A stretch of 64,000 nucleotides of DNA, taken from Allomuricauda sp. (GTDB taxonomy: Bacteria; Bacteroidota; Bacteroidia; Flavobacteriales; Flavobacteriaceae). Where the stretch lies: positions 12,254 to 76,253 of the forward strand of contig JANQIH010000295.1 of NCBI GenBank assembly GCA_028282265.1. Reading direction: 5' to 3'. The notes below the pieces were generated by a model that saw only the letters and a program-made list of their open reading frames with translations, searched no databases and was not told the origin of the DNA. Both the position numbers and the translations under genes were made by a program. How positions within the stretch are numbered: position 1 is the first letter of the stretch; each line of letters opens with the position of its first letter. Below, one piece after another: positions 1,190-28,225 of this stretch.

Positions 1190-1191
1190 TG

Positions 1192-2655
1192 TTAGATTTT
1201 AGTAAGCTTGTAGGCTACGGTACCATGTGGTGGAATCGCGGTAGCCGTAATTTTTTTTGTTTTTTGGCCAAGATGTTCCCCAGACCAGACATCAGTAACT
1301 TGGTAAGTGCCATCCCAATACTCCCAATGAAAGTAAAAATCAAGGTCCATTGGTTCCTCGCCCAAGTTGAAAAAGGCAATATATTTTTCGTTGCCATCTT
1401 TTGATTCAGCCAACCATATCCTATCTGTTCTTCCCATCCCTGAGTACACAAAATTTGCCGCTTGACGATTATGGGTACTGTGCTGGTTTATTCTCAATAG
1501 TTCTTTGTTTTGGAGCCAGGCATAATCCTCGGCTCGGCTTGTGATGGGATCTCCACCCCAAATCAATGGGGATTTTGCGAAAGACCATAGGGTCATTAAA
1601 GTCTTCTTCTCTTCATCATTGAGGTGAGAAAAATGTTCCTTTTTGGTGCTTTCTCCAGGATAATCAGAGAGGCATAAATTTCCGATGGGAATCATATCCA
1701 AATCGGGCCAGGTGCCATCTCCGATATGAGGTTGCCATGCATAGGCCAAATCAAACATATGAACAATCTTTTCCCAATAGTCCCAGAAGTCAATAGAAAT
1801 CCGGTACAGATTGGCATGGGCTTCCATGTGATTGGCATAACTGACAAAGGCTTCTCCACAGGAAAGGCTCAGTACCATGGGACGGCCACATTGGTCAATA
1901 GCATTCCTGATAAGTTCTATTTCCTTTGAATGATAGGTAGGTGCGGAAATATCATCCACTTTTACGAAATCAACACCCCAATTGGCGTACAAGTCAAAAA
2001 GGGAGTTGTAGTATTCTTGTGCCCCGGGTTTTGTTGGGTCAACACCATACATGTTATTGTTCCATTTGCAGGTATCTATTTTCTTGGCAACATCCGCAGC
2101 GTAATATTCAGTGCCTTTGATAGGGGTATTTGCATTTACAGCCTGGCGTGGAATGCCCCACATGATATGAATACCGAATTTCATATTCTTTTGATGCAGA
2201 TAATCCCCAAGAGCTTTAAATCCATCGCCATTTTTTGATGAGGGAAATCGATTTTCGGCTGGGATCAACCGCCCATATTCATCCATATTTAAAACCGGAT
2301 ATAGATTCCCCAATGAATCTTTTTCTTGCTTAACGGTAAAAGTGGTCCACTGGTTAGGATTCCAATTATCGGGCCCTGGATTGAACCAACAGAAATCTAT
2401 GGTTGCCATATCATATCCGTACGGCAATAGTTTTTTCTCCAAAGAATCCACGGATTGCAAAAACTGTTTTTCAGTTACCGCCCCGTGGTAGGCATCATAA
2501 CTGTTCCATCCCAAAGTTGGGGTTTTGGACCATTCTCTAAAATCGGGCTTCCCTTCTTTTTCTAACGAGGATATTTCTTTCTGTTTTTCATTACAACCAC
2601 TGAAAAACAATGAAGAAAATAAAAACAATATTGGTAGAATTCCATCAGTTCTCAT
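1192..2655 (-). CDS. GH27 glycosidase, lipoprotein; beta-L-arabinopyranosidase (Abp)-like
   Basis: TPTLGWNSY, DFVKVDD (nucleophile), YRISIDFWD (acid/base), WPDLDMIP; lipobox FSGC; IDFCW in place of the DD motif of alpha-galactosidases. Confidence 0.88.
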   Translation of the reverse strand: MRTDGILPILFLFSSLFFSGCNEKQKEISSLEKEGKPDFREWSKTPTLGWNSYDAYHGAVTEKQFLQSVDSLEKKLLPYGYDMATIDFCWFNPGPDNWNPNQWTTFTVKQEKDSLGNLYPVLNMDEYGRLIPAENRFPSSKNGDGFKALGDYLHQKNMKFGIHIMWGIPRQAVNANTPIKGTEYYAADVAKKIDTCKWNNNMYGVDPTKPGAQEYYNSLFDLYANWGVDFVKVDDISAPTYHSKEIELIRNAIDQCGRPMVLSLSCGEAFVSYANHMEAHANLYRISIDFWDYWEKIVHMFDLAYAWQPHIGDGTWPDLDMIPIGNLCLSDYPGESTKKEHFSHLNDEEKKTLMTLWSFAKSPLIWGGDPITSRAEDYAWLQNKELLRINQHSTHNRQAANFVYSGMGRTDRIWLAESKDGNEKYIAFFNLGEEPMDLDFYFHWEYWDGTYQVTDVWSGEHLGQKTKKITATAIPPHGTVAYKLTKI

Positions 2656-2755
2656 AAATATGAAATTCTTTAAAATTCATTAGCTGTATTTGCTCATTTG
2701 TCCAAATGAGTGGTGCAAACGGATTCAGAAATTCAAACCTCAGAATTTAAGATTA

Positions 2756-4357
2756 CTACTCTGACTTGCGTGCTGGGAATTCTATTTTTCTAAGCTCTTC
2801 CCCATCACCTGAGAGATAGAAGTTCTCGATATCACGTTCATCTACCCATCTTACATTAAGGGCTTCTCCTTTTTCAAAGCGATTGTAAACTCCGCCCACC
2901 TTATAAAACGGATGCGATTCATACAAATGTCCATACCCAATCATTCGTAAATCGCCTTGCTCTAAAAGCATGTTTTCCATTTCTGTTTCCATACTCTTTT
3001 TCGAGTTTTGAAGTGCAGGAATTTCTGCAAGATTCCTCACACAGTCAGGGTCTTTTGAAATATCATATAATTCTTCAATGGGTCGTTTGCCAAGATTAAG
3101 TTTCCAGTAATCATAAATACCATCTCGACGCTGTTCTATGAGCAATCTTTTTATAGGACTGCTGTCCACATTTAAATACCCTGTTTCCGGATTGCCGGCA
3201 GGCCATCTATCGGGTTCGTAGTTTTTGATATAAAGCATATCATCCTTGTACATTCCCCTAAATGGATAGCCTTCATCATTGGGCCTTCCAGGGTCATGAC
3301 GTTCTTTTCCAATTAGTACATAATCACGTGATGCTTCTATCTGGCCGGACTCTTTAGAAAAGAGAATGTTTCTGAGGCTCGTCCCTGTAGCGGGATGCAT
3401 CCCCGAAGATTGCCAATCAATGCCTGCTATATCCATAATGGTCGGTGCAAGGTCGATAAAACTGATATAGTCATCAACAACTCGTTTTTCCTTTATTTTA
3501 TCCTTCCACATCATGGTCATGGGAATATGGTTGGCATGTTCATATCCGTTGCCCTTAACCCTGGGAAAAGGCATGCCGTGATCTGAAGTTACTATCACCA
3601 AAGTGTTTTCCAATTCACCTGAATCTTCTAAATATTTTAGTATTTGTTGCAGATGTGAATCAGCATATTCCACTTCCAATGCATAATCCAACAAATCGTG
3701 ACGCACTATAGTCGTATCGGGCCAATACTTGGGTACATGCTTGATATCTGAAAGCTTCTTTTTACCCACCTTCTCTCCCGAACCATATTCATACGCCCTG
3801 TGCGGTTCATGAAAACCAACCCAAAAAAACCAAGGTTGACCTTTTGCAACTTCATTTACGAAATAATTGAAATTGGCTGCATAATCAGTAGCGGAAATCT
3901 CACTGGTAGGCACTTCTTTTTGAAATTCTGAGATGCGCTGTCCTATAACTTGTCGCTCTTTTCCATCAGAAGTCAAGGTTACTCCCGGAACATATCCCTT
4001 ACCTGTATACCCTGTGGCATAACCATTTTCAAGCATTACTTCGGGGAACGTCTTGAATTTTGGTGGAAAATAGATATAATGGTTCGCTCCCGCGTCCAGT
4101 TGCCATGAATTTCTTCCTGTTAAAATCGATGCCCTTGATGGCGAACATTTGGCGTTTGGCGTATAGGTTTTATTGAACAAAATTCCTTGCTCCGCGACTG
4201 CATCAAAACCCGGGGAGTCTACATAGCTTTCACCATAAGCGGACATGTCCATCCCCGCATCGTCAAAAATGACAAGTAAAATGTTGGGTTTTTGCTGTTC
4301 TTGGGATATAGCTATAAACCCAAAAAGGAATACACCTAATAGCAGAACTCTTTTCAT
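2756..4357 (-). CDS. S1 sulfatase (Cys-type, CSPSR), N-sulfoglucosamine sulfohydrolase-like
   Basis: PNILLVIFDD, CSPSRASILTG, TSDHGMPFPR, EELYD; signal peptide. Confidence 0.92.
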   Translation of the reverse strand: MKRVLLLGVFLFGFIAISQEQQKPNILLVIFDDAGMDMSAYGESYVDSPGFDAVAEQGILFNKTYTPNAKCSPSRASILTGRNSWQLDAGANHYIYFPPKFKTFPEVMLENGYATGYTGKGYVPGVTLTSDGKERQVIGQRISEFQKEVPTSEISATDYAANFNYFVNEVAKGQPWFFWVGFHEPHRAYEYGSGEKVGKKKLSDIKHVPKYWPDTTIVRHDLLDYALEVEYADSHLQQILKYLEDSGELENTLVIVTSDHGMPFPRVKGNGYEHANHIPMTMMWKDKIKEKRVVDDYISFIDLAPTIMDIAGIDWQSSGMHPATGTSLRNILFSKESGQIEASRDYVLIGKERHDPGRPNDEGYPFRGMYKDDMLYIKNYEPDRWPAGNPETGYLNVDSSPIKRLLIEQRRDGIYDYWKLNLGKRPIEELYDISKDPDCVRNLAEIPALQNSKKSMETEMENMLLEQGDLRMIGYGHLYESHPFYKVGGVYNRFEKGEALNVRWVDERDIENFYLSGDGEELRKIEFPARKSE

Positions 4358-4367
4358 AACAATTCAA

Positions 4368-5858
4368 TTATGAAAATGCGATATCATTCCATCGCAGTTC
4401 TTGTTTGAAGCGGTATAAATCGGTCTTTTCATCAATGAGCAAAAATTCGATTCCAAAAATATCAGCAAGGTCTTCCATTTGTTCTGCACTTATGTTTTCA
4501 CTATACCCTGTGTGATGCGCTCCGCCACCTAAAATCCATGCAGAAGCAGCGATATCAAGATTGGGATGCGGGTTCCACAGTACCCTTGCCACAGGTAGAT
4601 TGGGCATATTATTTTCAATTTCAACGGCATCAACGGTATTGACCAACATTCGAAAACGGTTGCCAACATCAATTATGGAAGCATTCAATGCTTTTCCTGC
4701 TCCGGCATTGAATACCAATCGAGCAGGGTCTTCCTTACCTCCAATACCCAGTGGATGTACCTCTACGCGAACTTCACCTTTTGCAATGGAAGGACAAATT
4801 TCAAGCATATGGGATCCCAAAACGGTACTTTGATTAGGGTCAAAATGGTAGGTGTAATCCTCCATAAAACTATTGCCCCCTTCCAATCCACTGGCCATAA
4901 CTTTCATAGTTCGTACAAGTGCTGCTGTTTTCCAATCTCCCTCGCCACCAAAACCATACCCTTTGGCCATGAGCCGCTGAGTTGCGATTCCGGGTAATTG
5001 TTTCATGCCATGAAGATTTTCAAAAGTATCGGTAAAGGCGGTAAAACCTCCTTCGTTCATAAAGGCTTCCATGCCCAGTTCTATTTGGGCCGAATCACGT
5101 AGGGATTGATGCTTTTCTCCGCCCTTTTTCACATTATCGGCCAGTATATAGCTTGATTCGTATTCTTCCAGCAACCTATTGATCTCACCTTCTGAAACCT
5201 GGTCGATATATTCCACTAAATCACCAACACCATACCCATTTACCTCGTAACCAAACTGAATTTGGGCAGAGACCTTATTGCCTTCGGTAACCGCAACTTG
5301 TCTCATATTATCGCCGATGCGTGCCACTTTCATTTGTTTGGAATCGGCTACAGCACAGGCAACGCGGCACCAATCATCCACTTTTTTGATAACGGCTTCA
5401 TTTTGCCAATGTCCCACAACCACCTTGCGGTTGATTCGCATCCTAGAAGCAATAAATCCAAACTCCCGACCCCCATGGGCCGATTGATTCAGATTCATAA
5501 AGTCCATATCAATAGTATTCCAAGGAATATCCCTGTTAAACTGGGTGTGTAAATGCAAAAATGGTTTGTTAAGTTCCTTTAAACCCGCTATCCACATTTT
5601 TGCCGGTGAGAAAGTATGCATCCATGCGATGATTCCAACGCAATTTTCGTCATTATTGGCGGCCCGTAAGGTTTGGGTAATCTCATCAGGGGTTTTGACG
5701 GTATCCTTCCAAATTACCTTCACCACAATGCTTTTATTGTCGTTATAGGCTTTTGCAATTTCTTTGGAATGCTCGGCTACCTGTTTTAAGGTTTCAGGAC
5801 CATACAAATGTTGACTGCCTGTCACGAACCAAACCTCATATTTTGATAAATCTACCAT
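4368..5858 (-). CDS. araA: L-arabinose isomerase
   Basis: [62 protein letters not shown]; about 496 aa. Confidence 0.97.
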
Positions 5859-5867
5859 ACTAAATTT

Positions 5868-7493
5868 TTAGAGAGATAAAGTACTGAATGAAATCATGAT
5901 GTAAACCACGATAATTACTACAACTATTGATACCAAGATATCCAACCAACCATAACTTGATTTGTTTTCTGCTTTTTGCTCTTCGGTAATAGTACCGAAT
6001 GTCATTCCGGCCAACTTTGCTGGTGCCGGGGCTGGAGACATCAGACTCACAACCACGGCTATGGCGATGCAAATAGCAAAGAAATATGCACCAAAGACCA
6101 GCCAATTAATGTTTGCCAGTGAGTGAATCAAACTACCTTCCGTAAAGTTATTCTTTAGTATTTCCAAGGTCAATTTTGAAAAACCAATGATAAAACCACC
6201 TATTAAAGTGGCCAGTGCCCCTTTTGAATTTATGCGTTTGTAAAAAATGCCCAAAAGGAAAACTGCTGCAATGGGTGGTGAAATGTAGGCCTGTACGTTT
6301 TGCAAGTATTCATAGAGACCATCGGAAAGTCTTGTTATGATAGGAATCCATAGCAATCCTAGAAACACCACAATAAAGGTTGCTATTCGACCCGTTTTTA
6401 CCAATTCTTCTTCTGGTTTCTCGGGTTTTAATTTTTTGTAAATATCCAATGTGAATAGTGTAGAGCATGAATTGAATACCGAAGCCAAAGAACTCATCAA
6501 AGCAGCTAGAAGTCCTGCGGCTACCAATCCCCTTAGACCAGAGGGCAATAGATTACTCATCAAAACGGGAAACGCTTGGTCAGGGCTGTCCCAATCCAAT
6601 CTTCCTTGCATTTTTAATCCCAAAGCGATAACACCTGGAATTAAAAACAAGAACACAGGCATTAATTTCAATAAGGCTCCAAAAATGCTTCCACGCCGAC
6701 CTTCTTTTATATTCTTTGCCGTCAATACACGTTGCACGATGACTTGGTCCGTACACCAATACCAAATTCCCACTACGGTACTGGTGATGAACAAGGGTAG
6801 CCAAGGGTAATCAGGATCTGAGTTGGGACGCCACATGTTGAAATAGTCCTTACCGACCGTCTCTTTTAATTCGCCCCATCCGCCGATGGCATCCAATCCC
6901 ATAAAAGTAAGAACGCCTGCTCCTAAAACCAGAACAATCGCCTGAATCGTCTCGGTATACACCACTGCACGCATTCCGCCCAAGACGGTATAAATCCCTG
7001 TGAGCACAACGGTTGCTACAGCCCCTATCCAAAAAGGAATTCCCAATAAGGCAGAAACCACTACCCCACCGGCATATATGGTAACAGATACTTTGGTCAA
7101 AATATAAGCGACCAAGGAAACAATAGATAGTATCCATCTGGATCGCGCATCAAAACGCTTTTCCAAAAATTCCGGCATGGTGAAAACTCCACTTCGTGCA
7201 TAAAAAGGAAGAAAGACCCAGCCCAACATCAGAACTACCCACGCATGCAGTTCATATATCAACAAAGGCATTTTGTCTCCAGCACCATTACCCGCTAATC
7301 CCACCACATGTTCAGAACCGATATTGGATGCAAAAATGGACGCTCCCACGACAAACCAGCCCACATTTCTGCCAGCTAAAAAATAATCTTCGGTGTCTTT
7401 CTGTTTTTGAAGTATTACCCACCAGGCTACACCAAGCAGTACCAAAAAATAGGCGGCTATTACAATCCAGTCTAAAGAATCCAGTCCTTGCAT
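5868..7493 (-). CDS. Sodium:solute symporter (SGLT-like), probably the L-arabinose importer
   Basis: YFLAGR, ASNIGSEH, FTMPEFLEKRF, YWCTDQVIVQR, AALMSSLAS motifs; about 14 TM segments; lies between araD and araA. Confidence 0.93.
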   Translation of the reverse strand: MQGLDSLDWIVIAAYFLVLLGVAWWVILQKQKDTEDYFLAGRNVGWFVVGASIFASNIGSEHVVGLAGNGAGDKMPLLIYELHAWVVLMLGWVFLPFYARSGVFTMPEFLEKRFDARSRWILSIVSLVAYILTKVSVTIYAGGVVVSALLGIPFWIGAVATVVLTGIYTVLGGMRAVVYTETIQAIVLVLGAGVLTFMGLDAIGGWGELKETVGKDYFNMWRPNSDPDYPWLPLFITSTVVGIWYWCTDQVIVQRVLTAKNIKEGRRGSIFGALLKLMPVFLFLIPGVIALGLKMQGRLDWDSPDQAFPVLMSNLLPSGLRGLVAAGLLAALMSSLASVFNSCSTLFTLDIYKKLKPEKPEEELVKTGRIATFIVVFLGLLWIPIITRLSDGLYEYLQNVQAYISPPIAAVFLLGIFYKRINSKGALATLIGGFIIGFSKLTLEILKNNFTEGSLIHSLANINWLVFGAYFFAICIAIAVVVSLMSPAPAPAKLAGMTFGTITEEQKAENKSSYGWLDILVSIVVVIIVVYIMISFSTLSL

Positions 7494-7542
7494 AATCTTA
7501 TCAGTTTGGTTGTTAATCGGTTTTAAAATTCAGGAAACATAT

Positions 7543-8247
7543 TTAGCATCCTTGACCGTAATATGCATCTTTTCCGTGCTTTCGTTCAAAATGCTTCTTT
7601 TTCAAGGCCTCTTTCAATGGATTGGCGTTAGGATTTATTTGTAACGTTAAATATGCCATTTTTGCCACCTCTTCACAGACCGCACTATTGTAAACGGCCT
7701 TGGCCACATCTTTTCCCCAAGTGAAAGGAGCATGATTTCCCACCAAAATCATTCCGGCATCCATATAATCGATACCACGTTCATTAAGACAGTCAATGAT
7801 TTGATATCCGGTCATGTGCTCATAATCGCCCTCAATATATTCATCTTTCATAGGTGGGGCACAGGGAATATCGGTCACCAAATGGTCCGCATGTGTTGTT
7901 CCAAAAATTGGGATATCAAGTAATGATTGTGCCCAAGCTGTTCCATATGTTGAATGAGTATGTACCACACCTCCGATTTTATCCCATTCTTTGTATAGAA
8001 CGGCATGTGTTTTTGTATCGGAAGAAGGACGCATTTTACCCTCGACCACTTCACCTTCATAATCACAGATGACAATGTCTTCTGGTTTCAAATCGTCGTA
8101 GGGAACACCACTTGGCTTAATGGCAAAAACTGCTTTATCTCTATCCACCGCGCTGGCATTACCAAAGGTAAAAAGCACCAGCCCCAGTTCCGGAAGCCGC
8201 ATATTGGCCTCGTAAGCCTCTTCTTTTAAGGATTTGTACTTGCTCAT
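7543..8247 (-). CDS. araD: L-ribulose-5-phosphate 4-epimerase
   Basis: FTFGNAS, IKPSGVPY, PSSDTKTH, VHTHS, THADH, HFERKHGKDAYYGQ. Confidence 0.97.
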   Translation of the reverse strand: MSKYKSLKEEAYEANMRLPELGLVLFTFGNASAVDRDKAVFAIKPSGVPYDDLKPEDIVICDYEGEVVEGKMRPSSDTKTHAVLYKEWDKIGGVVHTHSTYGTAWAQSLLDIPIFGTTHADHLVTDIPCAPPMKDEYIEGDYEHMTGYQIIDCLNERGIDYMDAGMILVGNHAPFTWGKDVAKAVYNSAVCEEVAKMAYLTLQINPNANPLKEALKKKHFERKHGKDAYYGQGC

Positions 8248-9914
8248 TGATTCATAGTATGTGCCTCCATGGTCTCACATAGGGCATTATATCTTTTGTA
8301 TACTTTTTTGTAACTGGCAGCATCAGCCTTGTTTGGATGATATTCTGCATCAAATGGACTTCCTATGTGTTCCATAGCTTGATGGGTATCCTCATACAGA
8401 CCAGCGGCCACAGCACCAAAAATACTTGCTCCCAAGGCACATGTCTGTTCTGATTTTGATACCCTTATCGGCATATTCAATACGTCGGCCATCATTTGCA
8501 TGATGAATTTTGACTTTTTAGCCACACCACCCAAAGCGATAATTCCTTTGATGGGAATACCCTCTTCTAAAAATCGATCCACAATTTTCTTAGCACCAAA
8601 ACATGAAGCTTCCACCAAAGCCCTAAAAACCTTTGGCGAGGTGCTCCCTAAATTTAATCCTCCTAAGACACCTTTTAAGCTTTGATTGGCATCAGGGGTG
8701 CGGCGGCCGTTCATCCAATCCAATGCCAACTCTCCTGAAGCTCCAATGGGTTCTTTAGATGCTGCCTCGCTTAATTTTGGGATAATTTTTGCCATGGTTT
8801 CGGCCACAATGGCATCTGCTGTTGCTTGTTCCACCAGAGCGGTGTGTGAAATAATTTCTTTGATAGGCCATGCCACCAATCGCTCGTACCATGCATATAG
8901 ATCTCCGAAAGCAGATTGCCCTGCTTCAAGACCCAACATCCCTGGAATAACAGAACCGTCCACCTGTCCGCAAATACCTTTGACCAATTTTTCTTCACCT
9001 TCCATGGGAGCGACCAAAATATCACAAGTAGAAGTCCCCATAATTTTGGTCAAGTGATAGGGTTCAATTTTTGCCCCGACGGCACCCATATGTGCATCAA
9101 AAGCACCAACGGCAACGGTTACATTAGTGGATAATCCTAATTTTTCTGCCCATTCAGGGGATAGCTTTCCAGCAGGAACATCAGAAGTGAAGGTTTCGGT
9201 AAAAAGACGGTCGCGAAGGCCATCTAAAATTGGATCTAATGCCTTGAAGAAATCATTAGGGGGTAAACCTCCGAAGGATTCATGCCAAAGCGCTTTATGC
9301 CCTGCTGCACATCTACTGCGTTTCATTTGGGAAACATCGCTACCGCCCGTCAATAAGAAAGGAACCCAGTCGCAATGTTCCACCCAAGAATAAGCGGCTT
9401 TGCGTACAGCTTCATCCTGGCGGGATACATGCAATATTTTTGACCAATACCACTCTGACGAGTAAATTCCACCTTCAAACTTACTGTAATCAATGTCCCA
9501 TCGTCCGCACAGTTCATTAATCTCATCGGCCTCCTTGATCCCGGTATGATCTTTCCAAAGCACAAACATAGCATTCGGATTTTCTTCAAATTCGGGTAAG
9601 AGTGCCAAAGGTGTTCCGGTCTTGTCCACTGCGGCGGGCGTTGAACCAGTGGTATCAACACCGATAGCCACAATATTGTCCACAACTTCTTGCTCAACCT
9701 GAGAAATCACATCCCTTATCGTGTTATCAATCCCTTCAATGTAGTCCAATGGGTGTTGGCGAAACTGGTTTTTGGAGGGTTCGCAATACAAGCCCTTTTT
9801 CCATCTTTGGTAATAATGTACGGAAGTGGCCAACTCTTCACCTGTTTTCGCATTTACCAATAGTGCGCGTACCGAATCAGAGCCAAAGTCCATTCCTATA
9901 GTATATTTTTCCAT
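8244..9914 (-). CDS. araB: L-ribulokinase
   Basis: IGMDFGSDSVRA, GVDTTGSTP, LWKDHT, YSSEW, AFDAH, GLEAGQSAFGD, LDWMNGRRTP (FGGY kinase). Confidence 0.96.
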   Translation of the reverse strand: MEKYTIGMDFGSDSVRALLVNAKTGEELATSVHYYQRWKKGLYCEPSKNQFRQHPLDYIEGIDNTIRDVISQVEQEVVDNIVAIGVDTTGSTPAAVDKTGTPLALLPEFEENPNAMFVLWKDHTGIKEADEINELCGRWDIDYSKFEGGIYSSEWYWSKILHVSRQDEAVRKAAYSWVEHCDWVPFLLTGGSDVSQMKRSRCAAGHKALWHESFGGLPPNDFFKALDPILDGLRDRLFTETFTSDVPAGKLSPEWAEKLGLSTNVTVAVGAFDAHMGAVGAKIEPYHLTKIMGTSTCDILVAPMEGEEKLVKGICGQVDGSVIPGMLGLEAGQSAFGDLYAWYERLVAWPIKEIISHTALVEQATADAIVAETMAKIIPKLSEAASKEPIGASGELALDWMNGRRTPDANQSLKGVLGGLNLGSTSPKVFRALVEASCFGAKKIVDRFLEEGIPIKGIIALGGVAKKSKFIMQMMADVLNMPIRVSKSEQTCALGASIFGAVAAGLYEDTHQAMEHIGSPFDAEYHPNKADAASYKKVYKRYNALCETMEAHTMNQ

Positions 9915-9924: not shown

Positions 9925-11250
9925 TTATGAAATCCTAAGCACCACAGTGCTATGAGCGTTCACTTTTGTTTTAAATTCATTGGCAAACTCACCAAGTTCT
10001 TCCTGTAACCAAAGGTCATATATTCTTCGACTCCCTTTCAAGCCCAAACTATCGAAACCAAATTGAATTTCTTGTTCTTTTTGTGACAAATTGAAAAGAG
10101 CGGCATAGATTGAACCTTTTCCATTTTGTGCCGTCCACAGTCTTATATCCTCTGTTCTGTCGAATTCCTTGTTGCCAAAACTGTTCTGGTTAATATCAAG
10201 AATCTCTTGATTTGTCAATAAATCGATGGTTTCTTGACTACACTTTGGTAAATGTCCACCAAACATCAATGGCGAACGGAACATGCACCAGAGTGATATA
10301 ACTGATCTTTGTTCTTCTATTGAAAAGTTTGAGAATCGCTCATGTCCTCCAGATTCACCTCTAGGCATATAACCAAAAGGCAACATATCCGCATCAGGCC
10401 AATGTCCTTCGGTGGCAAAAGGTGCCCAAATGGCGCAACGGTCTGTCTGTTTGACAAAGGAACCCCACTCGTCCCAAAAATCGGCAGAAATCCGCCATAA
10501 ATTGGCATTTTTTCTCAAGTGATTGATCACTGTGGTTTCCGGGCCTCCAGGGGACAGACTAAAAACAATATCACGTCCACAAGTGTTAATGGCGGCACTC
10601 ATACCCTCAATATCATCTATGCGGTAGGGCGACCCTTCTCCGGTAGGTGAACCGGTGCTTCGCTCTACTTCGTGCCAGGCATTGACATCATCGGCTTTGA
10701 TGTAGTCCACGCCCCAAGAAGCGTATAATTCCATAATGGAGTCATAGTATTTCTGTGCTTCGGGTTGGGTAAAATCCAGCGTATGCATGCTATTGAACCA
10801 GGGACAGATTTCTCTTTTATAGGAGATTTGGTCAGCAGTTTTATTTGTCCCTTTGATACGACATTTTTCTTCCACTGCCTTCCAGGGGATACCCCGCATA
10901 ATGTGCAGTCCAAACTTCAAACCCAGATTGTGAACGTAATCCGCCAATGGCTTTAAGCCCAAACCATTTTTGGAAGATGGGTGCATTATGGAGTCTGGCA
11001 TTAGCCTACCATACTCATCAATATGTAATGGAATATTGGAATTTTTGTAGTTGTGGTCATTAATACTTTCTCCGTACCACCCTAAATCCAACACCACATA
11101 TTCCCACCCGTATTGTTTTAGGTGTTTGGCCATAAAATCCGCATTGGCCCTTACCTCTTCTTCGGTTGCGTTAGGACCAAAACAATCCCAGCTGTTCCAA
11201 CCCATTGGTGGCGTTTTTGCCCTATTTGCTATGCGTTCCTGTTTTGTCAT
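9925..11250 (-). CDS. GH27 glycosidase without signal peptide (cytoplasmic); Abp-like
   Basis: KTPPMGWNSWD, YVVLDLGWY, DYIKADD, WRISADFWD, WPDADMLP; N-terminus MTKQERIANR is hydrophilic. Confidence 0.9.
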   Translation of the reverse strand: MTKQERIANRAKTPPMGWNSWDCFGPNATEEEVRANADFMAKHLKQYGWEYVVLDLGWYGESINDHNYKNSNIPLHIDEYGRLMPDSIMHPSSKNGLGLKPLADYVHNLGLKFGLHIMRGIPWKAVEEKCRIKGTNKTADQISYKREICPWFNSMHTLDFTQPEAQKYYDSIMELYASWGVDYIKADDVNAWHEVERSTGSPTGEGSPYRIDDIEGMSAAINTCGRDIVFSLSPGGPETTVINHLRKNANLWRISADFWDEWGSFVKQTDRCAIWAPFATEGHWPDADMLPFGYMPRGESGGHERFSNFSIEEQRSVISLWCMFRSPLMFGGHLPKCSQETIDLLTNQEILDINQNSFGNKEFDRTEDIRLWTAQNGKGSIYAALFNLSQKEQEIQFGFDSLGLKGSRRIYDLWLQEELGEFANEFKTKVNAHSTVVLRIS

Positions 11251-13007
11251 TTAATAAACACTGAAAAGATTAAGATAATAGCAATTAAAAGCAAAACACT
11301 CAACAACCACCAGAAAAAAATACCGTTGTACCATTTGCTTCCCAGTCCTTCCCGTAGTGCTTCTCCTTTTACATTAAACGTAAGGTTTTCTGCTTCGGGA
11401 TTCAAATGTTTGTCAGATGTCAATAGCGTACTGACTGCACAAATGAGCATGGAGAAAATCCAAGTAATCAACGCTTGATTGGCAAAGGGTTTTATGATTC
11501 CCGCGAAAGTGGAGGTTGAATCGGCCAATGGACCAAACTCCAAAAACTTTAGAAATCCTGCCATGGCAAAACCCCCGATGACCGTTACCAATGCATCACG
11601 ACCATTCACTTTTTTCCATAGCATCCCCAACAGGAACAAAGCGGAAAAAGGCGGTGCTATGAACGTGTACAGTGCCTGTATTAAGATAAATAAGTTGACC
11701 TTGGTTGCTGTGGCCAACATAACCGCAAAACCAATCGAAAGCAATAAGAACAGCGTGCCTGAGATTTTACCTACTCGCACCATCTGCTCACTGCTGGCAT
11801 TTTCATTGATACTTTCCCCGTAGAAATCCACTGTGAACATCGTAGAGGTGGAATTCAATACGGAACTTACCGTAGATTGAATGGCCCCGAAAAGCGCTGC
11901 CAATAGGACACCTTTCAAAAAGGTGGGCACCAAAATGTTTATCATTATGATGTAGGTTTTATTGGCTTCATCACTTTGAAATGCCCAATCTCCCGAAGTC
12001 AAATACTCGGGCTGCATCGCAAAAAATATTAGCCCTGGAATCACAACAATTACAGGAAGTAATAATTTGAGGTAACCCGCAAGTACCATTCCAGCCCTAG
12101 CATGATACGTATCTTTCGCAGCGAAAACTTTCTGAATCATGGTCTGATTAATGACCGTATACCAAAGTCCTATATAAAAGAAACTAAATACCCAATGGGT
12201 CCATGGATTGGAATAATGATTCAAGGGCTGTAGTACGGATAAGCGGTTATAATAATCTCCCTCCTGACTTCCTTTAAGAATGTTAGTTACATTTTCATTA
12301 ATCCATTCTTTGGACCAAAGCTCGCCCCCAAGATTTACATCGACCATTTTAGTGAATCCAGCGATAATTCCATTGCCCTCACCCAGATAGGAAAGTCCCA
12401 AAAAAGTAACGGTTAAGCCCCCGAAAATCATGATTAGGATGGTAAGCACATCCATGAAGGCCACGGATTTCAGTCCGCCCCAGATGGCCCATCCTCCGGT
12501 AGTTATTCCGATAATTATGCATGCCGTTAACGGAGATAGTTCAAAGAATTCAACGAGTATAAGACTACCTCCATAGATTACAGGTCCCATAAAGGCAAAA
12601 ACGTTAGCCAAAATGGAAATTCCGGCAAAAATGGAGCGAATCTTTTTACTGAATCGTTTTTCCAAATATTCAGGCGTTGTAAGTACTTTGGAGGTAAGCA
12701 AATACGGTATAAACAACCAGATTAAGAAAGTAAAGGCAATTACGGTACTCCACTCTCCTGTAGCGACACTTATACCGTAAATGACCGCCGCCCCGATTAA
12801 ACCGATAAAATGTTCCGTACTAATATTGGCCGCAATGTAAGAGCTGCCCACAACATACCATGGAAGACTTCTTCCTGCCAAAAAATAATCTGATGAATCT
12901 TTGCTTTTTTTTCTCCCATACCACCAGCCTATTGCGCTTAACAAAAAGAAGTAGGCAAAAAATGCAAAATAGTCCCAGAACGTGAAATTGAAAAGCTGTT
13001 CTGTCAT
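11247..13007 (-). CDS. Sodium:solute symporter (second, divergent paralog)
   Basis: YFLAGRSLPW, AANISTEHFIG, PEYLEKRFS, INQTMIQK, STVSSVLNS; stop overlaps the GH27 start (ATGA-type overlap at 11247-11250). Confidence 0.92.
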   Translation of the reverse strand: MTEQLFNFTFWDYFAFFAYFFLLSAIGWWYGRKKSKDSSDYFLAGRSLPWYVVGSSYIAANISTEHFIGLIGAAVIYGISVATGEWSTVIAFTFLIWLFIPYLLTSKVLTTPEYLEKRFSKKIRSIFAGISILANVFAFMGPVIYGGSLILVEFFELSPLTACIIIGITTGGWAIWGGLKSVAFMDVLTILIMIFGGLTVTFLGLSYLGEGNGIIAGFTKMVDVNLGGELWSKEWINENVTNILKGSQEGDYYNRLSVLQPLNHYSNPWTHWVFSFFYIGLWYTVINQTMIQKVFAAKDTYHARAGMVLAGYLKLLLPVIVVIPGLIFFAMQPEYLTSGDWAFQSDEANKTYIIMINILVPTFLKGVLLAALFGAIQSTVSSVLNSTSTMFTVDFYGESINENASSEQMVRVGKISGTLFLLLSIGFAVMLATATKVNLFILIQALYTFIAPPFSALFLLGMLWKKVNGRDALVTVIGGFAMAGFLKFLEFGPLADSTSTFAGIIKPFANQALITWIFSMLICAVSTLLTSDKHLNPEAENLTFNVKGEALREGLGSKWYNGIFFWWLLSVLLLIAIILIFSVFIK

Positions 13008-13030: not shown

Positions 13031-14569
13031 TCATTTTATCGTGATATTACTCACGTAATCGTTTCGTGTAATGTTTATCTGATTTAGATTTTCCAACTTT
13101 CCTTCTTTGGTCATAATATTGATAAGGGTCAATCCCTCAATATTACTGACTTCACTTTCACCGATTAATTGTTTACCAATGGCATTGAAACCTGCATCGA
13201 TCTCCACATTTTCCAAAGTCATGTTCCGGATTTTACCTCCACCTGCTCCCTGGAAATTGGACTTCCCGATTTCAATGTCGAACAAATTACCATGCATTAA
13301 CTTCACATTTTTGATGTTGAGGTTGTTTATGTCCGCACTACCCCCATGTCTTGCTGCAATAAACGCTTTGTTGGAAGGAGTAAGGCTTACTGTATTCTCG
13401 ATGGTGATATCCTTGGCGTAGTCGGCCCCATTCCATGTCAGCATAATATCCCCACCATTGTTGTCCAATCCCCAAAAGACTATATCCTTAATGAAAATAT
13501 TGGAAACAGGGACTCCCTTTAACTGGTTGGACCCGTCCCATGATAATTCATCGTTTCCAGTTTCTGCATCATAAAGTCCGGTAATGCAGATACGGTCATC
13601 ATTACTGGCTATGAAACTATCTGTAACCTCCACATTGGTACTGTAGGTGTGAAGACCATCATTGTTATGTTCACCAAATCCACAGAGCTTAACATTATTT
13701 ATTTTTACATCATTGCAATTGGCAACCTCTAATTGATAGCTGGGACTACTCATGATGGCAACACCATCAATCTCAATATCTTCGGAATCTATGAAAACTA
13801 CACCCAGCCAATCAGCATCCCATTCTTCTTCTTTACTGGATTCTTCTGCATGGGTAACAAACGACTGAGAAAGTATACCCCGACCCAAAATTTTCACCCC
13901 CTTTTTATTCTTGGCCTTAATGGTCGCTTCTACAACAGCACCACGGGCAATGTAAAGTGTCTTGATGCCGTCAACGAATGGGTCCCAAGCTTGGCCATAT
14001 TTGTAAATTCCAGGCTCCAAAAAGAGAACCGATTTGTCCTCCTTATCTGGTATATCGGTTTCCGGTTCCTCTGCACTAACTATCAAGTAGTGTTCTTTCT
14101 CACCAATTTTAGAAGAAACCACAAATTTTTGTGGTTTTTCAAGGGATATGGTGATTGTATTTCCTTCTTTACGAACTGCGGAATTGATTTCTGGCATTAC
14201 TTTCCACTCAGCAAAGGAGCTATCCCCTTTCAGGATTTGTAATGATATTGGATCTGAAATCGAAAAACTCAAATAGGAAACTCCATCATAAGAAACACTG
14301 TTTCCTTGTTTTTTGTGTTCGTTTTTGTCTCTTATTTCAATTGATTTGTACACGAAAGCTTCTTCCCCATTTAAACTGGCACTGAAAATATCGGATTGCG
14401 AAAGCCCATGGATATCGCTAAGACCTTCCGCTATTTTTAGATGAGTCATAGCTCCATCACTATCATTTAGAAAGCTTGCTGAAGCGACAGTGGATGTTTT
14501 TTGCTTGGCCTGGTTACACGAAATAAATAGTACTAAAACTGTGACATAAGCATTCAGGAGATTTTTCAT
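13031..14569 (-). CDS. Right-handed beta-helix glycoside hydrolase lipoprotein, GH49/GH28 (clan GH-N)-like
   Basis: Lipobox FISC; N-terminal beta-sandwich, then FLEPGIY...GRGILS...HNNDGLH...IASNDDRI (three-Asp arrangement of clan GH-N); repeated NIxIxN beta-helix rungs. Confidence 0.75.
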   Translation of the reverse strand: MKNLLNAYVTVLVLFISCNQAKQKTSTVASASFLNDSDGAMTHLKIAEGLSDIHGLSQSDIFSASLNGEEAFVYKSIEIRDKNEHKKQGNSVSYDGVSYLSFSISDPISLQILKGDSSFAEWKVMPEINSAVRKEGNTITISLEKPQKFVVSSKIGEKEHYLIVSAEEPETDIPDKEDKSVLFLEPGIYKYGQAWDPFVDGIKTLYIARGAVVEATIKAKNKKGVKILGRGILSQSFVTHAEESSKEEEWDADWLGVVFIDSEDIEIDGVAIMSSPSYQLEVANCNDVKINNVKLCGFGEHNNDGLHTYSTNVEVTDSFIASNDDRICITGLYDAETGNDELSWDGSNQLKGVPVSNIFIKDIVFWGLDNNGGDIMLTWNGADYAKDITIENTVSLTPSNKAFIAARHGGSADINNLNIKNVKLMHGNLFDIEIGKSNFQGAGGGKIRNMTLENVEIDAGFNAIGKQLIGESEVSNIEGLTLINIMTKEGKLENLNQINITRNDYVSNITIK

Positions 14570-15356: not shown

Positions 15357-15383
15357 AATCGATTCTTTAAATTGAATTTTTAT

Positions 15384-23238: not shown

Positions 23239-24792
23239 TTATCCGCCTCTATACCCATTGTTGGTAGGGTCTGAGTTTAATAAATTTGGATTCAGGATAA
23301 GCTCCTCCTGAGGTATGGGAAGCAATACGTGGTATGGTTGAATGTTGTCCGCTGGGTTGTTCCATGCTCTATGCTGAACACTTTGCACAGTTTCCAGTAA
23401 AATGCCCCAACGAATCAAGTCCATTCTACGATACCCCTCGGTACATAGCTCAAACTTACGCTCATCATACATCGCCAAGCGAAATTGTTCCTGGTTCATT
23501 CCGCTCCAAGGTTTATCAGGTTCAAAGGCCCGCTCACGGACACGGTTCACATAAGGGTATGCTCCGTTAGGACCATTAAGTTCGTTTTCGGCTTCCGCCG
23601 CCATTAAATAAATATCCGCCAAACGGAACACCACGTAATTTTCATGGTGGTTCTGTCGAGGCGAAGTCTGGTTCAAGTTCCAATTTTTCCTGAAATATGG
23701 AAACGACAACTCGTATCCCAAATATTCGCTGACAATGGTGGCATCATATCTCAAGTCATCCGGATCCCAATTGGCCCGGTCTGCCAATTCTGGGAGTGGA
23801 ATAGCCCATCCAAAACCAGTCATATCCTGTCCAACAGCCTGTAAATCCGCAAAAAGCAATTCCCACCTTGCGGGTGTGCCCTCGCCTCCAGGGCGATCAT
23901 TTCGATTACTGGGCTCATCACGTAGCCTTGGATTGTAATCATCCGTCCGTTGTGTAGCTCCATCGTTGAACCCTTCTACGGGATCAGTGGTAAAATCAAT
24001 AACAAAAATCTGTTCATCGTTATATTGATCTGTCAAATCTGTCTGGTCAAAAACGGCGGCGAAATCCTCAAGTAAACGATGTGGCGAATTATTGATAATG
24101 TTATCACATGCGATCTTGGCTTCTGCCCATTCCCTATCGAAGAGATGAAATTTAGCTTTCAAAGCTTCGGCCGCCCATCTTGAGGCACGCCCCAAATCAG
24201 GTTGATTCGGTAATAAATCAAAGGCTAGGGTCAAATCGGCCTTCATGTCGGTACGAATTTGATCTCTCGAAGTGCGTTCCAACACGCCCAGTTCTTCAAG
24301 GGGAAGCAGTTCCCTAAAATAGGGTACATCGCCCCAAAGGTTGGTCAAGTGAAAATAGGCCAATGCCCTCATGAAATAGGATTCGCCCAAGGTTTGATTC
24401 CTTACTTCCTCAGAAAGGCTCTCATTACCTTCAATACTTGAAATGTTCAATGATGCATTACGTACAATTTCATAGAGTGCTCCCCATGTGCCATTTCCAT
24501 CAGCGACCCCTTCTTGAATCAAATAGTTATGGATATTGCCGTTCACATTTCTGCTAGGACCCACCTCATCGGCACCATTGACATAATAATTATCCAAGCC
24601 TCTGGTTCTATAAAGGGTTCCCCTGTGTAAAATACGATAAAGTCCATTGGCGGCCAACACGGCTTCTTGATCGTTGTTAAAGAAATTCTCTACGGCAATT
24701 TGATCGCGCAAATCTTCCTCTAAAAAGCTATCACAGCCTGAAAGCACCATCAAAACTGCACAAATTGATACGATAAATGTTTTGTTTTTCAT
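23239..24792 (-). CDS. susD: SusD/RagB family outer-membrane lipoprotein
   Basis: Lipobox LSGC; GESYFMRALAYFHLTNLWGDVP, FRLADIYLMAAEA, DERKFELCTEGYRRMDLIRWG, LLPIPQEE. Confidence 0.95.
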   Translation of the reverse strand: MKNKTFIVSICAVLMVLSGCDSFLEEDLRDQIAVENFFNNDQEAVLAANGLYRILHRGTLYRTRGLDNYYVNGADEVGPSRNVNGNIHNYLIQEGVADGNGTWGALYEIVRNASLNISSIEGNESLSEEVRNQTLGESYFMRALAYFHLTNLWGDVPYFRELLPLEELGVLERTSRDQIRTDMKADLTLAFDLLPNQPDLGRASRWAAEALKAKFHLFDREWAEAKIACDNIINNSPHRLLEDFAAVFDQTDLTDQYNDEQIFVIDFTTDPVEGFNDGATQRTDDYNPRLRDEPSNRNDRPGGEGTPARWELLFADLQAVGQDMTGFGWAIPLPELADRANWDPDDLRYDATIVSEYLGYELSFPYFRKNWNLNQTSPRQNHHENYVVFRLADIYLMAAEAENELNGPNGAYPYVNRVRERAFEPDKPWSGMNQEQFRLAMYDERKFELCTEGYRRMDLIRWGILLETVQSVQHRAWNNPADNIQPYHVLLPIPQEELILNPNLLNSDPTNNGYRGG

Positions 24793-24802
24793 TGCTGTTT
24801 TT

Positions 24803-27800
24803 TTAAAATTCGAATCTTACACCCGTTAATATACTTGTTGCATATGGATATGCTCCTGCAGCAAAACCTTGGGAAACACCACCAAATTGATTGTTTGTAC
24901 TCGCGGAAGTGAAATTATTCACTTCAGGATCACCCAAGGTGAAGTCAGAGAATAGTAAAAGGTTTCTACCCGTTACGTACACGTTTATACCTTTGAAAAT
25001 ATCACCCAGTCCCACATTTTCCACAGGAATATCATAGGAGAGGGTAACTGTGCGCAATCGAACAAAAGAACCATCCTCTATATTAACCGTACTATTTGGG
25101 TTAAACAGACTGGTAGAGGTTCCTGCTCGAGGAATGTCGGAGGTTTCATCAATCCCTTCCCTCCATCGGTTCAATACTCTTGGATCTACATTTTCATCCC
25201 CTCTTCCGAACAAGGAACGTTGGGTCACCACGTTGAATATTTCGGCACCAAAGGAGTACTGAAAGAAAACATCCAGATTCAGACCTTTCCAGGAGAAAGT
25301 ATTTCTTAACCCTCCAAAAAAGTCAGGTTGGGGACTCCCAATTACCGAAAAATCTTCTTGATTGATGGTCCCATCCTCATTAACATCACGATAACGGGGA
25401 CTCCCTAAAAAGGCGCGTCCTACGGCGTTGTCATCTATAATTTCCTGTGGGTCTTTGTAAGTCCCCAAATACTCGGCACCAACAAAGGCTGGAAAAGCTT
25501 CTCCAGGGATAAGTCGTGCAGAAGGACCGCCCTGATTACCGGTTGACTGAATGTCGATAAACTCTTCATCACCAATATCCAAAACCTCGCTGTCGTTGGA
25601 AGTGAGGGTAAACGTAGTGTTCCAGCTAAAGTTATCATTGCTAATATTTCTTGTATCCAACAAAAATTCAAAACCTCGGTTCTCAACACTACCTACATTT
25701 TCAAGTACCCTGTTACCCGCTGTATTGGGCAAATCCCGAAACAGTAATAAATCTTCCGTAGTCCTTTTATAATATCCTGCCTCGATTGAAATCCGATTGT
25801 TCAACAAGCCGATTTCCAGACCTAAATCCAGTTGCTTTGTTGTCTCCCAGGTCAAATCATTGGTAGCAGGATCGTCCAAGATTACAGCTGGAACCAAGAC
25901 TTCGTTGAAATAATTAAATTCAGGATCGAATAAATTAAAAGAATTGTATGGGCTTACCCCTTGCTCACCAACTATTCCATAGCTTCCCCTAAACTTCAAC
26001 CTGTTGATGGCTTCCAAATCAGTCATAAAATTTTCCTCGTCGACATTCCAAGCCACCCCAACGGATGGAAAAAAAGAATACTTGTTCCCGTCCTCAAACA
26101 CAGAGGAGCCATCTTGCCTTCCAACTACCGTTAAAATATAGCGGTCTTTGTATCCGTAGGTTACCCTGCCCAAGATGGAAGTCAATGTTCGTTGGCCATA
26201 CCCGGATCTAACTTGATAGGTTTCTGGGTCAGAACCTAAGGAAAGGTTGTTGAACTCCACAACATCGTTGGGAAAGCCTTCTGCGGATTGATCGGTGGTT
26301 TCATTGGTGATTTTTTGAGCCGTAAAACCACCCAATATGTTTAACGAATGGTCACCAAATCTCTTGTCCCAAGTAAAAGTGGTCTCACTCAATATATCCT
26401 TGGAATTATTCGTTCTTATGCGACCGAAACCACCAATATTATTGTTCAAAAGCCTTTCTGGTAGGGCACCTGGTTGATACTCGTTTCGCTTAAAAAAATT
26501 AAAGGTCGCCCCAAAACTGGTTCTCATCCTAAAATCCTCGAAGAGTTCATATTCTGCATATAAGTTGGTAATAATATTGGTGACCAAATCGTGGTCCACC
26601 CGCAACTGGTAATCCGCTACAGGGTTACGTTGCAATGTACCGCTTACGGGATTGGTTCCGGTGAAATTGCCCTCATCGTCAAATACCGTTCTAATTGGAA
26701 GTACTCCGGAAATTATTTGTTGAAAATTGACCTTATTTCGCTCCCTTCTGAAGGTGCTTAGATTTAAACGCGTACCAAACTTAAACCGTTCGGACACATC
26801 AACATCAAAGTTGCTCCTAAAAGTTACCCGCTCCAACCCGGAATTTTTAATCAAACCTTCTTGATTGAAATAGTTGATTGATGAGTAGTAATTGGTATTC
26901 TCCGTTCTACCGGTTACAGAAAGGTCGGTATTATAGATTATACCCGACGAGGTTACTTCATCTACCCAGTCGGTAGTGGGCACCGCACCTGGATTATCAA
27001 ACTGCAATGGCAAACTGGGATCCGTGAAACCGATGGGCACCAGAGTACCGTTTACATTGATTGGGGTTCCAGGCGTAAATTGACCCGCTTCGTTAAGATA
27101 ATCCACATAATCCTGACCTCCCAATATTTCGATTTCGTTGGCCAGCGCGTCCATGCTCACATAAGAATTTAGAGTGAAGGTCGGTTTTCCAACAGGCAAG
27201 GATGTTCCGTTCTTGGTAGTTATAAGGACCACTCCTGCAGCGCCTCGTGTACCGTAGATGGACAATGCGGTCGCATCTTTAAGAATTTCTATGGACTGAA
27301 TATCATTAATGTTGATATTGTTCAAATTGAATCCTGTACCCACAATAAACCCATCTACCACAAAAAGAGGGTCATTGTTCCCATTAATGGAACTGTTACC
27401 CCTAATACGGATAGTCGCTCCCTCACCAGGGGCACCATTGTTGGAGACCACCTCGACGCCCGCTGCCCGACCCTGTAGGGCCTGATCGACCCTTGACACC
27501 GGTTGGTTCTGAATTTCTTCAGCCTTTACCGATGCCACCGCGGATACCAGTTGTTTTTTCGAGGACGTTCCATAACCAATGACCACAACCTCATCCAATA
27601 GTTGGGTATCTTCAACCAAGACAATGTTTATAACTGTTGCTTCGCCCACAGTAACATTTTGGGGTATATAACCTATAAAGGAAAACTGCAATACATCCCC
27701 GGTATTGGCTTGAATGGAATAGTTACCATCAAAATCTGCAGCGACGCCATTGTTGGTGCCCTGTACCAAAACAGTAACACCCGGCAATAGGGTACCTGCC

Positions 27801-27886: not shown

Positions 27887-28225
27887 AGTTTGTAATATTA
27901 ATTCAGTTAGACTAAAGCTGGTTATTGTTTCGGTAAACTTAACAAGAGAATCTGCTCCCGACCCTTTCGACATTCTCAATAATAGGGGAAAATTGTTACA
28001 AAAAATTTACATTTTATTAAGATTTACAGGTATCGGGAAGTTATGCAACATTTTTGCCCCATAAATTAGACAGCACACAACAGTTCTCCTTGGAATGTAT
28101 TTGAATTATATATAATATTGACATAAATATGTATGGTTTTTTAAATAAACCACAATTTCAAAATGTATAGATTATATTATCATCATTTTTTCAGGTTTTT
28201 CCGTCTAAGGATTTCTTTATCCTTT

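Follow-up and report, generated by a model that had tools for sequence, protein, structure and literature searches.

The stretch of DNA analysed here (the window: 64,000 nucleotides of an Allomuricauda sp. genome, Flavobacteriaceae, contig JANQIH010000295.1, positions 12,254 to 76,253) carries a minus-strand gene for a lipoprotein of 512 amino acids (aa), called the target below. It stands at the head of a string of ten closely spaced genes on the minus strand, which run in the order target, SSF2, GH27b, araB, araD, SSF1, araA, sulfatase, GH27a and GH43. The target gene is real: it has 52 close homologues with E-values of 0 to 1e-81, so its open reading frame (ORF) is not a product of chance. 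The target subfamily is best described as previously uncharacterised, misannotated as glycoside hydrolase family 28 (GH28), related to GH49 and tied to L-arabinose catabolism in sulfatase-rich polysaccharide utilization loci (PULs). The features of the target are as follows, in coordinates of the window.

13031..14569, minus: target gene, a divergent GH49-like (clan GH-N) lipoprotein of 512 aa (ORF with ATG start; Pfam; homologues; AlphaFold2 and Foldseek; hhalign)
14516..14569, minus: signal peptide and lipobox, aa 1-18, LFIS|C18 (sequence)
14060..14422, minus: N-terminal beta-sandwich of GH49 type, about aa 50-170 (AlphaFold2 strands; hhalign; superfamily profile)
13034..14029, minus: right-handed beta-helix, the catalytic domain, aa 181-512 (AlphaFold2 secondary structure; Foldseek; PF00295 on aa 247-330)
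13655..13666, minus: NNDG motif, aa 302-305, with D304 as predicted member of the catalytic base pair (alignment with NTDG of GH28 and QTDG of isopullulanase and dextranase)
13592..13603, minus: NDDR motif, aa 323-326, with D324 as predicted general acid and D325 as predicted base (alignments; roles by analogy with GH28 and GH49)
13511..13579, minus: family-specific insertion of ~23 aa right behind the predicted catalytic DD, aa 331-353, with invariant G331 and D334 (hhalign gaps)
13427..13459, minus: NGGDIMLTWNG turn, aa 371-381, at the position of RIK in GH28 (alignments)

The AlphaFold2 model of the target, built on 36 homologues, has a mean predicted local distance difference test score (pLDDT) of 83.4 and a predicted template modelling score of 0.86. 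It displays the two-domain fold of GH49 enzymes, in which an N-terminal beta-sandwich is packed on a right-handed beta-helix. Strands of the sandwich lie at aa 56-167, hhalign places aa 55-170 on the N-domain of isopullulanase, and a superfamily profile matches the same N-domain with an E-value of 4e-6. In Foldseek searches GH49 structures came first, namely isopullulanase 3wwg (E 1e-16, template modelling (TM) score 0.69), Dex49A 1ogm (TM 0.66) and the Arthrobacter dextranase AoDex 6nzs (TM 0.63). These matches span ~560 columns at 13-17% sequence identity, while the best GH28 entries reached TM scores of 0.34-0.42. A preliminary description of this gene had proposed a lipoprotein with a GH49-like N-terminal sandwich and had suggested the structural comparison; signal peptide, Cys18 and model all agree with that proposal.

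The aspartates named in the same description (NNDG...NDD) were located by regular expression at aa 302 and aa 323, and they are conserved throughout the family. Across the 36 aligned homologues, which are 35-87% identical, N302, N303, D304, G305, H307, D325 and R326 are invariant and D324 is kept in at least 90%; N371, D374, I375 and N380 in the later turn are invariant as well. Alignment by hhalign sets D304 on the Asp of GH49 xTDG and D324/D325 on the DD pair (DDD/NDD) of isopullulanase and dextranase, so that the GH49 Asp triad is present in the target as D304/D324/D325. We take the corresponding catalytic triad of Dex49A to be D376/D395/D396, and by analogy with GH28 and GH49 we take D324 to be the general acid and D325 the base. 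The NGGDIMLTWNG turn aligns with 'PVVEFGW/PVIQWGW' of GH49 and with 'NGAPFQISWNG' of a related family that is introduced below as family B. The insertion at aa 331-353 (pLDDT 54-73) is a gap in the hhalign alignments with family B and with isopullulanase and dextranase.

Automatic annotation places the target in GH28, and its homologues carry the name 'glycosyl hydrolase family 28 protein' from the Prokaryotic Genome Annotation Pipeline (PGAP). The Pfam match behind this name is to PF00295 (34.5 bits against a cut-off of 22.9), and it spans profile positions 84-169, which is 86 of 324 positions, around the shared Asp motifs. Pectinase equivalogs of NCBIfam (PglB, rhamnogalacturonidase) reach 14-26 bits against cut-offs of 600-650. 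In HMMER alignments to GH28 structures, NNDG of the target falls on N-T-D-G and NDD on G-D-D, the GHG turn falls within an insertion of the target, and 'NGVRIKSW' aligns with 'NGGDIMLTW', so that R becomes D374 and K becomes M376 (RIK to DIM). From these alignments both motifs by which GH28 enzymes bind the uronate carboxylate, GHG and RIK, are truly lost in the target. A regular expression search over all 512 aa likewise found no GHG, SHG, RIK, NTD or GDD, in agreement with the absence of GHG and RIK reported earlier; of the four motifs of GH28 (NTD, G/QDD, G/SHG and RIK), the target thus has NND and NDD at the first two and nothing at the others.

Known enzymes of both families resemble the target in part. 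GH28 polygalacturonases and rhamnogalacturonases (1rmg, 7b7a, 3jur) belong to clan GH-N and share with it the beta-helix and the aligned NxDG and DD motifs; unlike them, the target is without GHG and RIK, has a GH49-type N-terminal sandwich, superimposes on them with a TM score of ~0.4 and stands in no uronate context. GH49 structures (Aspergillus isopullulanase 3wwg/1wmr, Penicillium Dex49A 1ogm, Arthrobacter dextranase 6nzs) have the two-domain architecture, the aligned xxDG and DD motifs and a W-containing turn past the catalytic coil in common with the target. They differ from it in the low sequence identity, in the missing Pfam GH49 match and in the 23-aa insertion behind the DD, and their context is alpha-glucan utilization, whereas the target, a lipoprotein, is encoded among sulfatase and arabinose genes. 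The target lies in a grey zone between GH49 and GH28, with the architecture of GH49. The search with hidden Markov models (HMMs) that had been recommended gave a divided answer, with a partial GH28 match and none to GH49 in Pfam.

Profile comparisons refine this placement. Aligned with hhalign, the target family matches isopullulanase with E 1.9e-5 over 307 columns that cover both domains, and the Arthrobacter dextranase with E 8.8e-7, at probabilities of 78-91%. This direct sequence link is marginal, and on profile evidence the target appears to be a remote member or a sister of GH49 in clan GH-N. The solid link seems to run through family B, which was found by a search with a 479-aa paralogue, 27% identical to the target, from a Thermophagus locus (L004). 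Target family and family B align over their full length (hhalign E 5.5e-52, 423 columns, 26% identity), and the profile of family B in turn reaches GH49 structures with 3.5e-37, 3e-27 and 3.5e-24 but GH28 with 4e-7 only. Moreover, a profile of 55 diverse superfamily members matched GH49 structures best (3e-39) and exo-polygalacturonases next (5e-36). In an exhaustive HMMER search of 1.84 billion representatives, the tight target family comprised about five clusters at 50% identity, and the superfamily around it ~4200 proteins.

The N-terminus of the target reads MKNLLNAYVTVLVLFIS|C18, and the Cys is followed by a tether at aa 19-45 that is predicted to be disordered (pLDDT <50 for aa 17-45). 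Lipoproteins exported to the surface of Bacteroidota are typically D/E-rich at positions +2 to +5 after the Cys. Such an acidic signal is seen in other lipoproteins of the locus, including SusD (CDSFLEED), a LamG/FIVAR protein (CEDDEG) and a 448-aa protein (CSTDTGD), and is absent from the target, in which NQAKQK follows Cys18. Across the target family the positions Cys+1 to +5 hold 0-1 acidic residues, several members have only a type-I signal peptide without lipobox Cys, and the N-terminus of the target resembles those of the sulfatase lipoproteins in the locus. Because the acidic signal is missing and orthologues carry type-I signals, a periplasmic location is favoured; judged by these signals, the target most likely faces the periplasm and not the cell surface.

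The genes behind the target and the core of the PUL are listed below.

11247..13007, minus: SSF2, sodium:solute symporter, 23 bp downstream of the target (Pfam SSF; NCBIfam; synteny)
9925..11250, minus: GH27b, candidate Abp-like beta-L-arabinopyranosidase, cytoplasmic (PDB match 4nx0; N-terminus; motif)
4368..9914, minus: L-arabinose catabolism block (Pfam)
8244-9914, minus: araB (Pfam)
7543-8247, minus: araD (Pfam)
5868-7493, minus: SSF1 (Pfam)
4368-5858, minus: araA (Pfam)
200..4357, minus: tail of the gene string (Pfam; PDB)
2756-4357, minus: sulfatase (Pfam)
1192-2655, minus: GH27a, an Abp-like lipoprotein (Pfam; PDB match)
200-1189, minus: GH43 (Pfam)
23239..32341, both strands: PUL core (Pfam)
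23239-24792, minus: SusD (Pfam)
24803-27979, minus: SusC (Pfam)
28163-32341, plus: hybrid two-component regulator, HTCS (Pfam)

SusCD and HTCS thus lie 9-14 kb from the target. The window as a whole holds 8 sulfatases and a formylglycine-generating enzyme, a GH2 gene, three GH43 genes, galK/galT/galE and a mutarotase. As the preliminary description had stated, it holds no genes of uronic-acid catabolism: a Pfam scan of the 36 ORFs of at least 150 aa found no uronate-catabolism, lyase or esterase gene, and the two ORFs left outside that scan are antisense ORFs within larger genes. Cladophorales produce uronic-acid-free sulfated beta-L-arabinopyranans and galactans that are 4-linked with Gal/Xyl branches, and those of Bryopsidales are 3-linked (PMC7550628). 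The composition of the locus fits such uronic-acid-free sulfated arabinans and galactans of green algae.

Among the partner genes, GH27b matches the characterized Geobacillus beta-L-arabinopyranosidase Abp (PDB 4nx0) with E 1.8e-125 and 45.5% identity. In GH27, an Ile at the specificity position distinguishes Abp (Ile67) from alpha-galactosidases, which have Asp there (PMC4598101). At this position GH27b has Leu56, in the motif VLDLGW, and GH27a has Phe. Like Abp, GH27b is without a signal peptide, and the residue in place of Ile67 is again hydrophobic, a likeness that belongs to the partner gene and not to the target. The Abp system acts on plant arabinan and arabinogalactan and is not known to include a GH49-like enzyme or sulfatases. 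The two GH27 genes of the window (9925-11250 and 1192-2655, both minus) are Abp-like paralogues, 40% identical to each other, of which GH27a is a lipoprotein and GH27b cytoplasmic.

The trio of target, SSF2 and GH27b is kept in five Flavobacteriia loci (L001-L003, L014 and L018), and behind it stand transketolase, transaldolase, an AraR-type NUDIX regulator, araB, araD, an SSF gene and araA. SSF2 is the most conserved partner, with 62-78% identity in orthologous loci and 77-78% in L001-L003. Immediately upstream of the target orthologue lies SusCD in L014 and HTCS in L001, L003 and L018. The neighbours that recur in every locus of Thermophagus, Opitutales and Pelagicoccus are sulfatases, sometimes together with an SSF2 orthologue. 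A metagenomic contig (L017, 10001-11554) presents a natural deletion: SSF2 and most of GH27b are gone, the target orthologue (P0026) runs on into what is left of the GH27b tail, with a Melibiase_C segment at its end, and the next genes are those of the arabinose operon.

Enzymes that cleave sulfated arabinan have been described in Bacteroides plebeius, in which two proteins termed 'GH49_dist' (EDY96541.1 and EDY96565.1) cut the sulfated arabinan of Chaetomorpha and Cladophora in an endo-acting manner (Helbert et al. 2019, PMC6442616). The sulfated-arabinan activity that the preliminary description had placed under GH49 is thus confirmed in substance. These proteins are distant GH49 relatives from Bacteroidota, and their substrate class fits the gene neighbourhood of the target. 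The 52 close homologues of the target include no Bacteroides or Phocaeicola protein, and the B. plebeius enzymes are therefore at best its distant paralogues. No B. plebeius entry appeared by name among the match lists and clusters of the target family and family B, and a scan of a genome collection with the target family profile gave 8 loci only, none from Phocaeicola. Cluster look-ups for B. plebeius-like relatives led to Planctomycetota, B. cellulosilyticus and metagenome proteins. A profile search with 55 diverse relatives, in which the word prefilter was tied to the target family, yielded nearly the same matches as before.

Family B is far larger than the target family (>555 matches against about 52) and consists of proteins of ~460 aa, such as those of F. 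flevense (P0270), Thermophagus (P0230) and B. cellulosilyticus (P0349). Gut Bacteroides are among its members, one member was named 'Glycosyl hydrolase family 49' by its source, and the proteins carry type-I signal peptides. Their genes sit in strings of GH43, family B, sulfatase, GH27 and GH43. Besides the Asp triad, both families have xWNG and HGG motifs, and they occur in the same genomes and the same sulfatase/GH27/GH43 islands. Unlike the target, however, family B is much closer to GH49, is without the ~23-residue insertion and stands outside the arabinose operon; the insertion at aa 331-353 is the obvious structural candidate for the difference between the two.

Each of the six named genomes with a target orthologue also has a family B gene (6/6). 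The two genes lie on the same contig ~60 kb apart in Flavobacterium flevense, 66 kb apart in Flavobacterium sp. ARAG 55.4 and 150 kb apart in the metagenome-assembled genome CP121314; they are adjacent in Thermophagus, and on different contigs in Polaribacter sp. M15 and Lutibacter sp. HS1-25. We considered the strain name 'ARAG 55.4' as a hint at arabinogalactan and rejected it, as this agarolytic strain was isolated from a red alga. In the simplest reading of these sequence relations, the published endo-arabinanases would belong to the lineage of family B. On that reading the target would be a non-redundant, more divergent paralogue of family B, and family B would be the better candidate for the published endo-activity.

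In the Thermophagus locus the target orthologue adjoins three further beta-helix paralogues, so that four clan GH-N paralogues stand within 10 kb (L004, 9875-19079): the target orthologue, a 772-aa fusion of beta-helix and GH43, a family B member and a Verrucomicrobia-like copy of the target family. Just upstream of this array (422-9198) are an SSF2 orthologue, sulfatases and a GH2 gene. One family B cluster (P0323, locus L013) holds 827 member sequences from public runs and lies in a SusD/GH43/sulfatase PUL. As family B occurs in Bacteroides cellulosilyticus too, some microbiomes that live with hosts may commonly contain putative arabinan hydrolases of GH49-like type.

Taken with the location and the partners, these relations suggest, with somewhat more confidence than doubt on our side, that the target is a membrane-anchored, periplasmic, inverting clan GH-N hydrolase that cuts beta-L-arabinopyranosidic bonds of green-algal sulfated arabinan or arabinogalactan. 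Cys18 with its lipid and the flexible tether would anchor the protein to the membrane, most likely on the periplasmic side. By analogy with related enzymes, D324 would serve as the general acid, and D304 and D325 would position and activate the water for inversion by single displacement. beta-L-Arap has the C1-C4 configuration of alpha-D-Galp (PMC7550628, PMC4598101), so the stereochemical argument of the preliminary description was sound. The bond attacked would be an axial beta-L-arabinopyranosidic linkage of sulfated pyranosic L-arabinans or arabinogalactans, 4-linked in Cladophorales and 3-linked in Bryopsidales.

According to this proposal, cleavage probably follows import by SusCD and partial desulfation. 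The target would act on imported, at least partly desulfated oligosaccharides because its conserved partners work further inside, the symporter in the inner membrane and the arabinopyranosidase in the cytoplasm. Its products would be short arabinopyrano-oligosaccharides, di- or trisaccharides, which the adjacent SSF2 may take up; cytoplasmic GH27b would split them to L-arabinose, to be catabolised by AraA, AraB and AraD. Release of free arabinose by the target is unlikely, because GH27b would then be superfluous, given that SSF1 sits in the araBAD block. Enzyme class and substrate sugar of the target are well supported by context. Its fold, conserved triad, lost motifs, homologies and gene context are results of the present analysis, while what it cuts, its place in the periplasm, how large its products are and what SSF2 does are inferences.

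Several observations weigh against this assignment. The Pfam models of GH49 (PF03718, PF17433) do not match the target at E<1, and the target family HMM alone finds no GH49 chain at E<10 in HMMER searches of structures, although the same HMM reaches GH28 at 6e-9. The change of RIK to DIM adds an acidic residue, for which a sulfated ligand offers no obvious use. Monosaccharides are the usual cargo of SSF transporters, and uptake of oligosaccharides by SSF2 is a guess; the rule of acidic export signals is only statistical. No GH27 or ara genes are adjacent in Verrucomicrobia loci, so that the link to arabinose is seen in Bacteroidota only. The tie of the target and family B to the published B. 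plebeius activity is indirect, since they were set beside EDY96541.1 and EDY96565.1 by description. The 64-kb window contains no family B gene, and the target could still be the main depolymerase here. The function is assigned from sequence and structure models.

The last but one of these points bears on the role given to the target in the preliminary description, that of a surface endo-enzyme which makes the first cuts in the polymer before import by SusCD. The chemistry would be the same, and the target is indeed a lipoprotein and the only clan GH-N protein in the window; SusCD lies 9 kb away here and immediately upstream of the orthologue in L014, and the published GH49 arabinan hydrolase acts in endo fashion (PMC6442616). 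The missing acidic motif behind Cys18, in which the target differs from SusD and from the LamG and 448-aa lipoproteins, the sulfatase-like N-terminus and the orthologues that have type-I signals only all argue against exposure at the surface, as do the conserved symporter and cytoplasmic GH27 partners. Other surface candidates are at hand in the 1676-aa protein sorted by the type IX secretion system (T9SS), the LamG/FIVAR lipoprotein and the 448-aa lipoprotein, and family B is the better candidate for the endo-activity. We therefore regard a surface initiator as unlikely, though it deserves to be kept in mind. What stands of the earlier proposal is the arabinopyranosidic clan GH-N enzyme with its intact Asp triad, which the L-arabinose operon and the 8 sulfatases favour; the initiating role at the surface is not supported. 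Less probable again, and in our view doubtful, is that the target works on side chains of sulfated arabinogalactan instead of the arabinan backbone, freeing a beta-L-Arap disaccharide or cutting alpha-D-galactosidic bonds. A symporter and a cytoplasmic GH27 downstream would suit uptake of such small glycosides, but the GH27 partners have Leu or Phe in place of Asp at the position that separates Gal from Ara, the gene stands in an arabinose and not in a galactose operon, and among related families the nearest for which an activity has been suggested indicates arabinan backbones.

The remaining alternatives are far weaker. That the target is a GH28 pectinase, a polygalacturonase or rhamnogalacturonase as in the automatic annotation, would agree with a PF00295 score above the gathering threshold, the weak NCBIfam matches and the PGAP name; yet the Pfam match is partial, the NCBIfam scores are far under their cut-offs, GHG and RIK are absent, the structural similarity to GH28 is low, and the window is without uronate, lyase and esterase genes, which makes a pectinase very improbable. 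That the target is a former hydrolase which now binds glycans without catalysis, for which the loss of GHG and RIK and the great divergence of the sequence might speak, is no more credible: the three catalytic Asp and several of their neighbours are (near-)invariant from Bacteroidota to Verrucomicrobia at 35-87% identity, which argues that catalysis is retained. Least plausible is a classical GH49 alpha-glucanase; isopullulanase and dextranases are the best structural matches, but identity to them is low, no GH49 model of Pfam recognises the target, the window holds no genes of alpha-glucan utilization, and arabinose and sulfatase genes surround it. Pectinase and dextranase were accordingly rejected on motifs, structure and context.

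Beyond the periplasmic arabinopyranosidic hydrolase that we favour, a bolder proposal may be put forward, tentatively and with clear reservation. The target might found a separate subfamily or a new clan GH-N family, whose members would hydrolyse arabinopyrano-oligosaccharides in the periplasm; the insertion behind the DD possibly makes them exo-acting 'arabinobiohydrolases'. With an SSF symporter devoted to oligosaccharides and a GH27 in the cytoplasm, these enzymes would form an undescribed route by which marine Bacteroidota and Verrucomicrobia catabolise the pyranosic L-arabinan of green algae.

Some other features of the window may be mentioned. Upstream of the target lies a non-coding gap of 814 bp (14570-15383), in which promoter and terminator scans showed no difference from shuffled sequences; no Rfam match was found anywhere in the window. 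A GC-rich hairpin, AAGCCCAT…ATGGGCTT, stands at about 15329-15355 on the minus strand behind the stop codon of the LamG gene, and the target therefore probably starts its own transcription unit. Beside galT/galK, a LacI-family regulator is split into two minus-strand ORFs (50960-51970), one of 181 aa with the helix-turn-helix and the start of the sugar-binding domain (51425-51970) and one of 141 aa that covers the C-terminal portion (50960-51385). The split points to a frameshift, to a pseudogene with a stop codon or to a fault in the assembly; L017 has an intact LacI of 335 aa. The window derives from the assembly of a coral metagenome. The exact sequence of the target region occurred in one coral-metagenome run, and marine metagenomes contain only 5-7% of its words, so the source is a marine organism of Flavobacteriia-like type that is rarely sampled.

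Four sizeable secreted proteins are encoded around SusCD, at 15384-16856 (minus), 17198-18544 (plus), 19043-21637 (minus) and 41653-46683 (plus). They are the LamG/FIVAR lipoprotein with its acidic export signal, the 448-aa lipoprotein with a sub-threshold GH59-like match only, an 864-aa protein in which ~480 N-terminal residues without any match precede fn3 repeats, and the T9SS-sorted protein of 1676 aa. A PDB sequence search of the 448-aa and 864-aa proteins returned nothing, or fn3 repeats only. These four proteins are better candidates than the target for surface depolymerases or binding proteins, and they possibly represent new families of carbohydrate-active enzymes (CAZymes).

Sulfated arabinans and arabinogalactans of green algae are plentiful in the sea. 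What is documented of their breakdown by bacteria is, for sulfated arabinan, a single screening result on two B. plebeius GH49 relatives (PMC6442616), and our literature search found no later enzymology paper on this polysaccharide. The present analysis adds a conserved module of three genes, for a hydrolase related to GH49, a symporter of the SSF type and an Abp-like GH27 of the cytoplasm, which is wired into the L-arabinose operon and into sulfatase-rich PULs and whose hydrolase family is systematically misnamed GH28. Should the activity not be confirmed, the target would be a routine divergent CAZyme. The protein offers a clear lead, open to experiment, in an area of marine glycan degradation that has been little charted, and introduces no new principle. 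If the proposed function is true, the target would allow arabinan use to be traced in marine metagenomes by a marker gene, would widen the specificity map of clan GH-N and would offer a tool enzyme for structural work on these polysaccharides.

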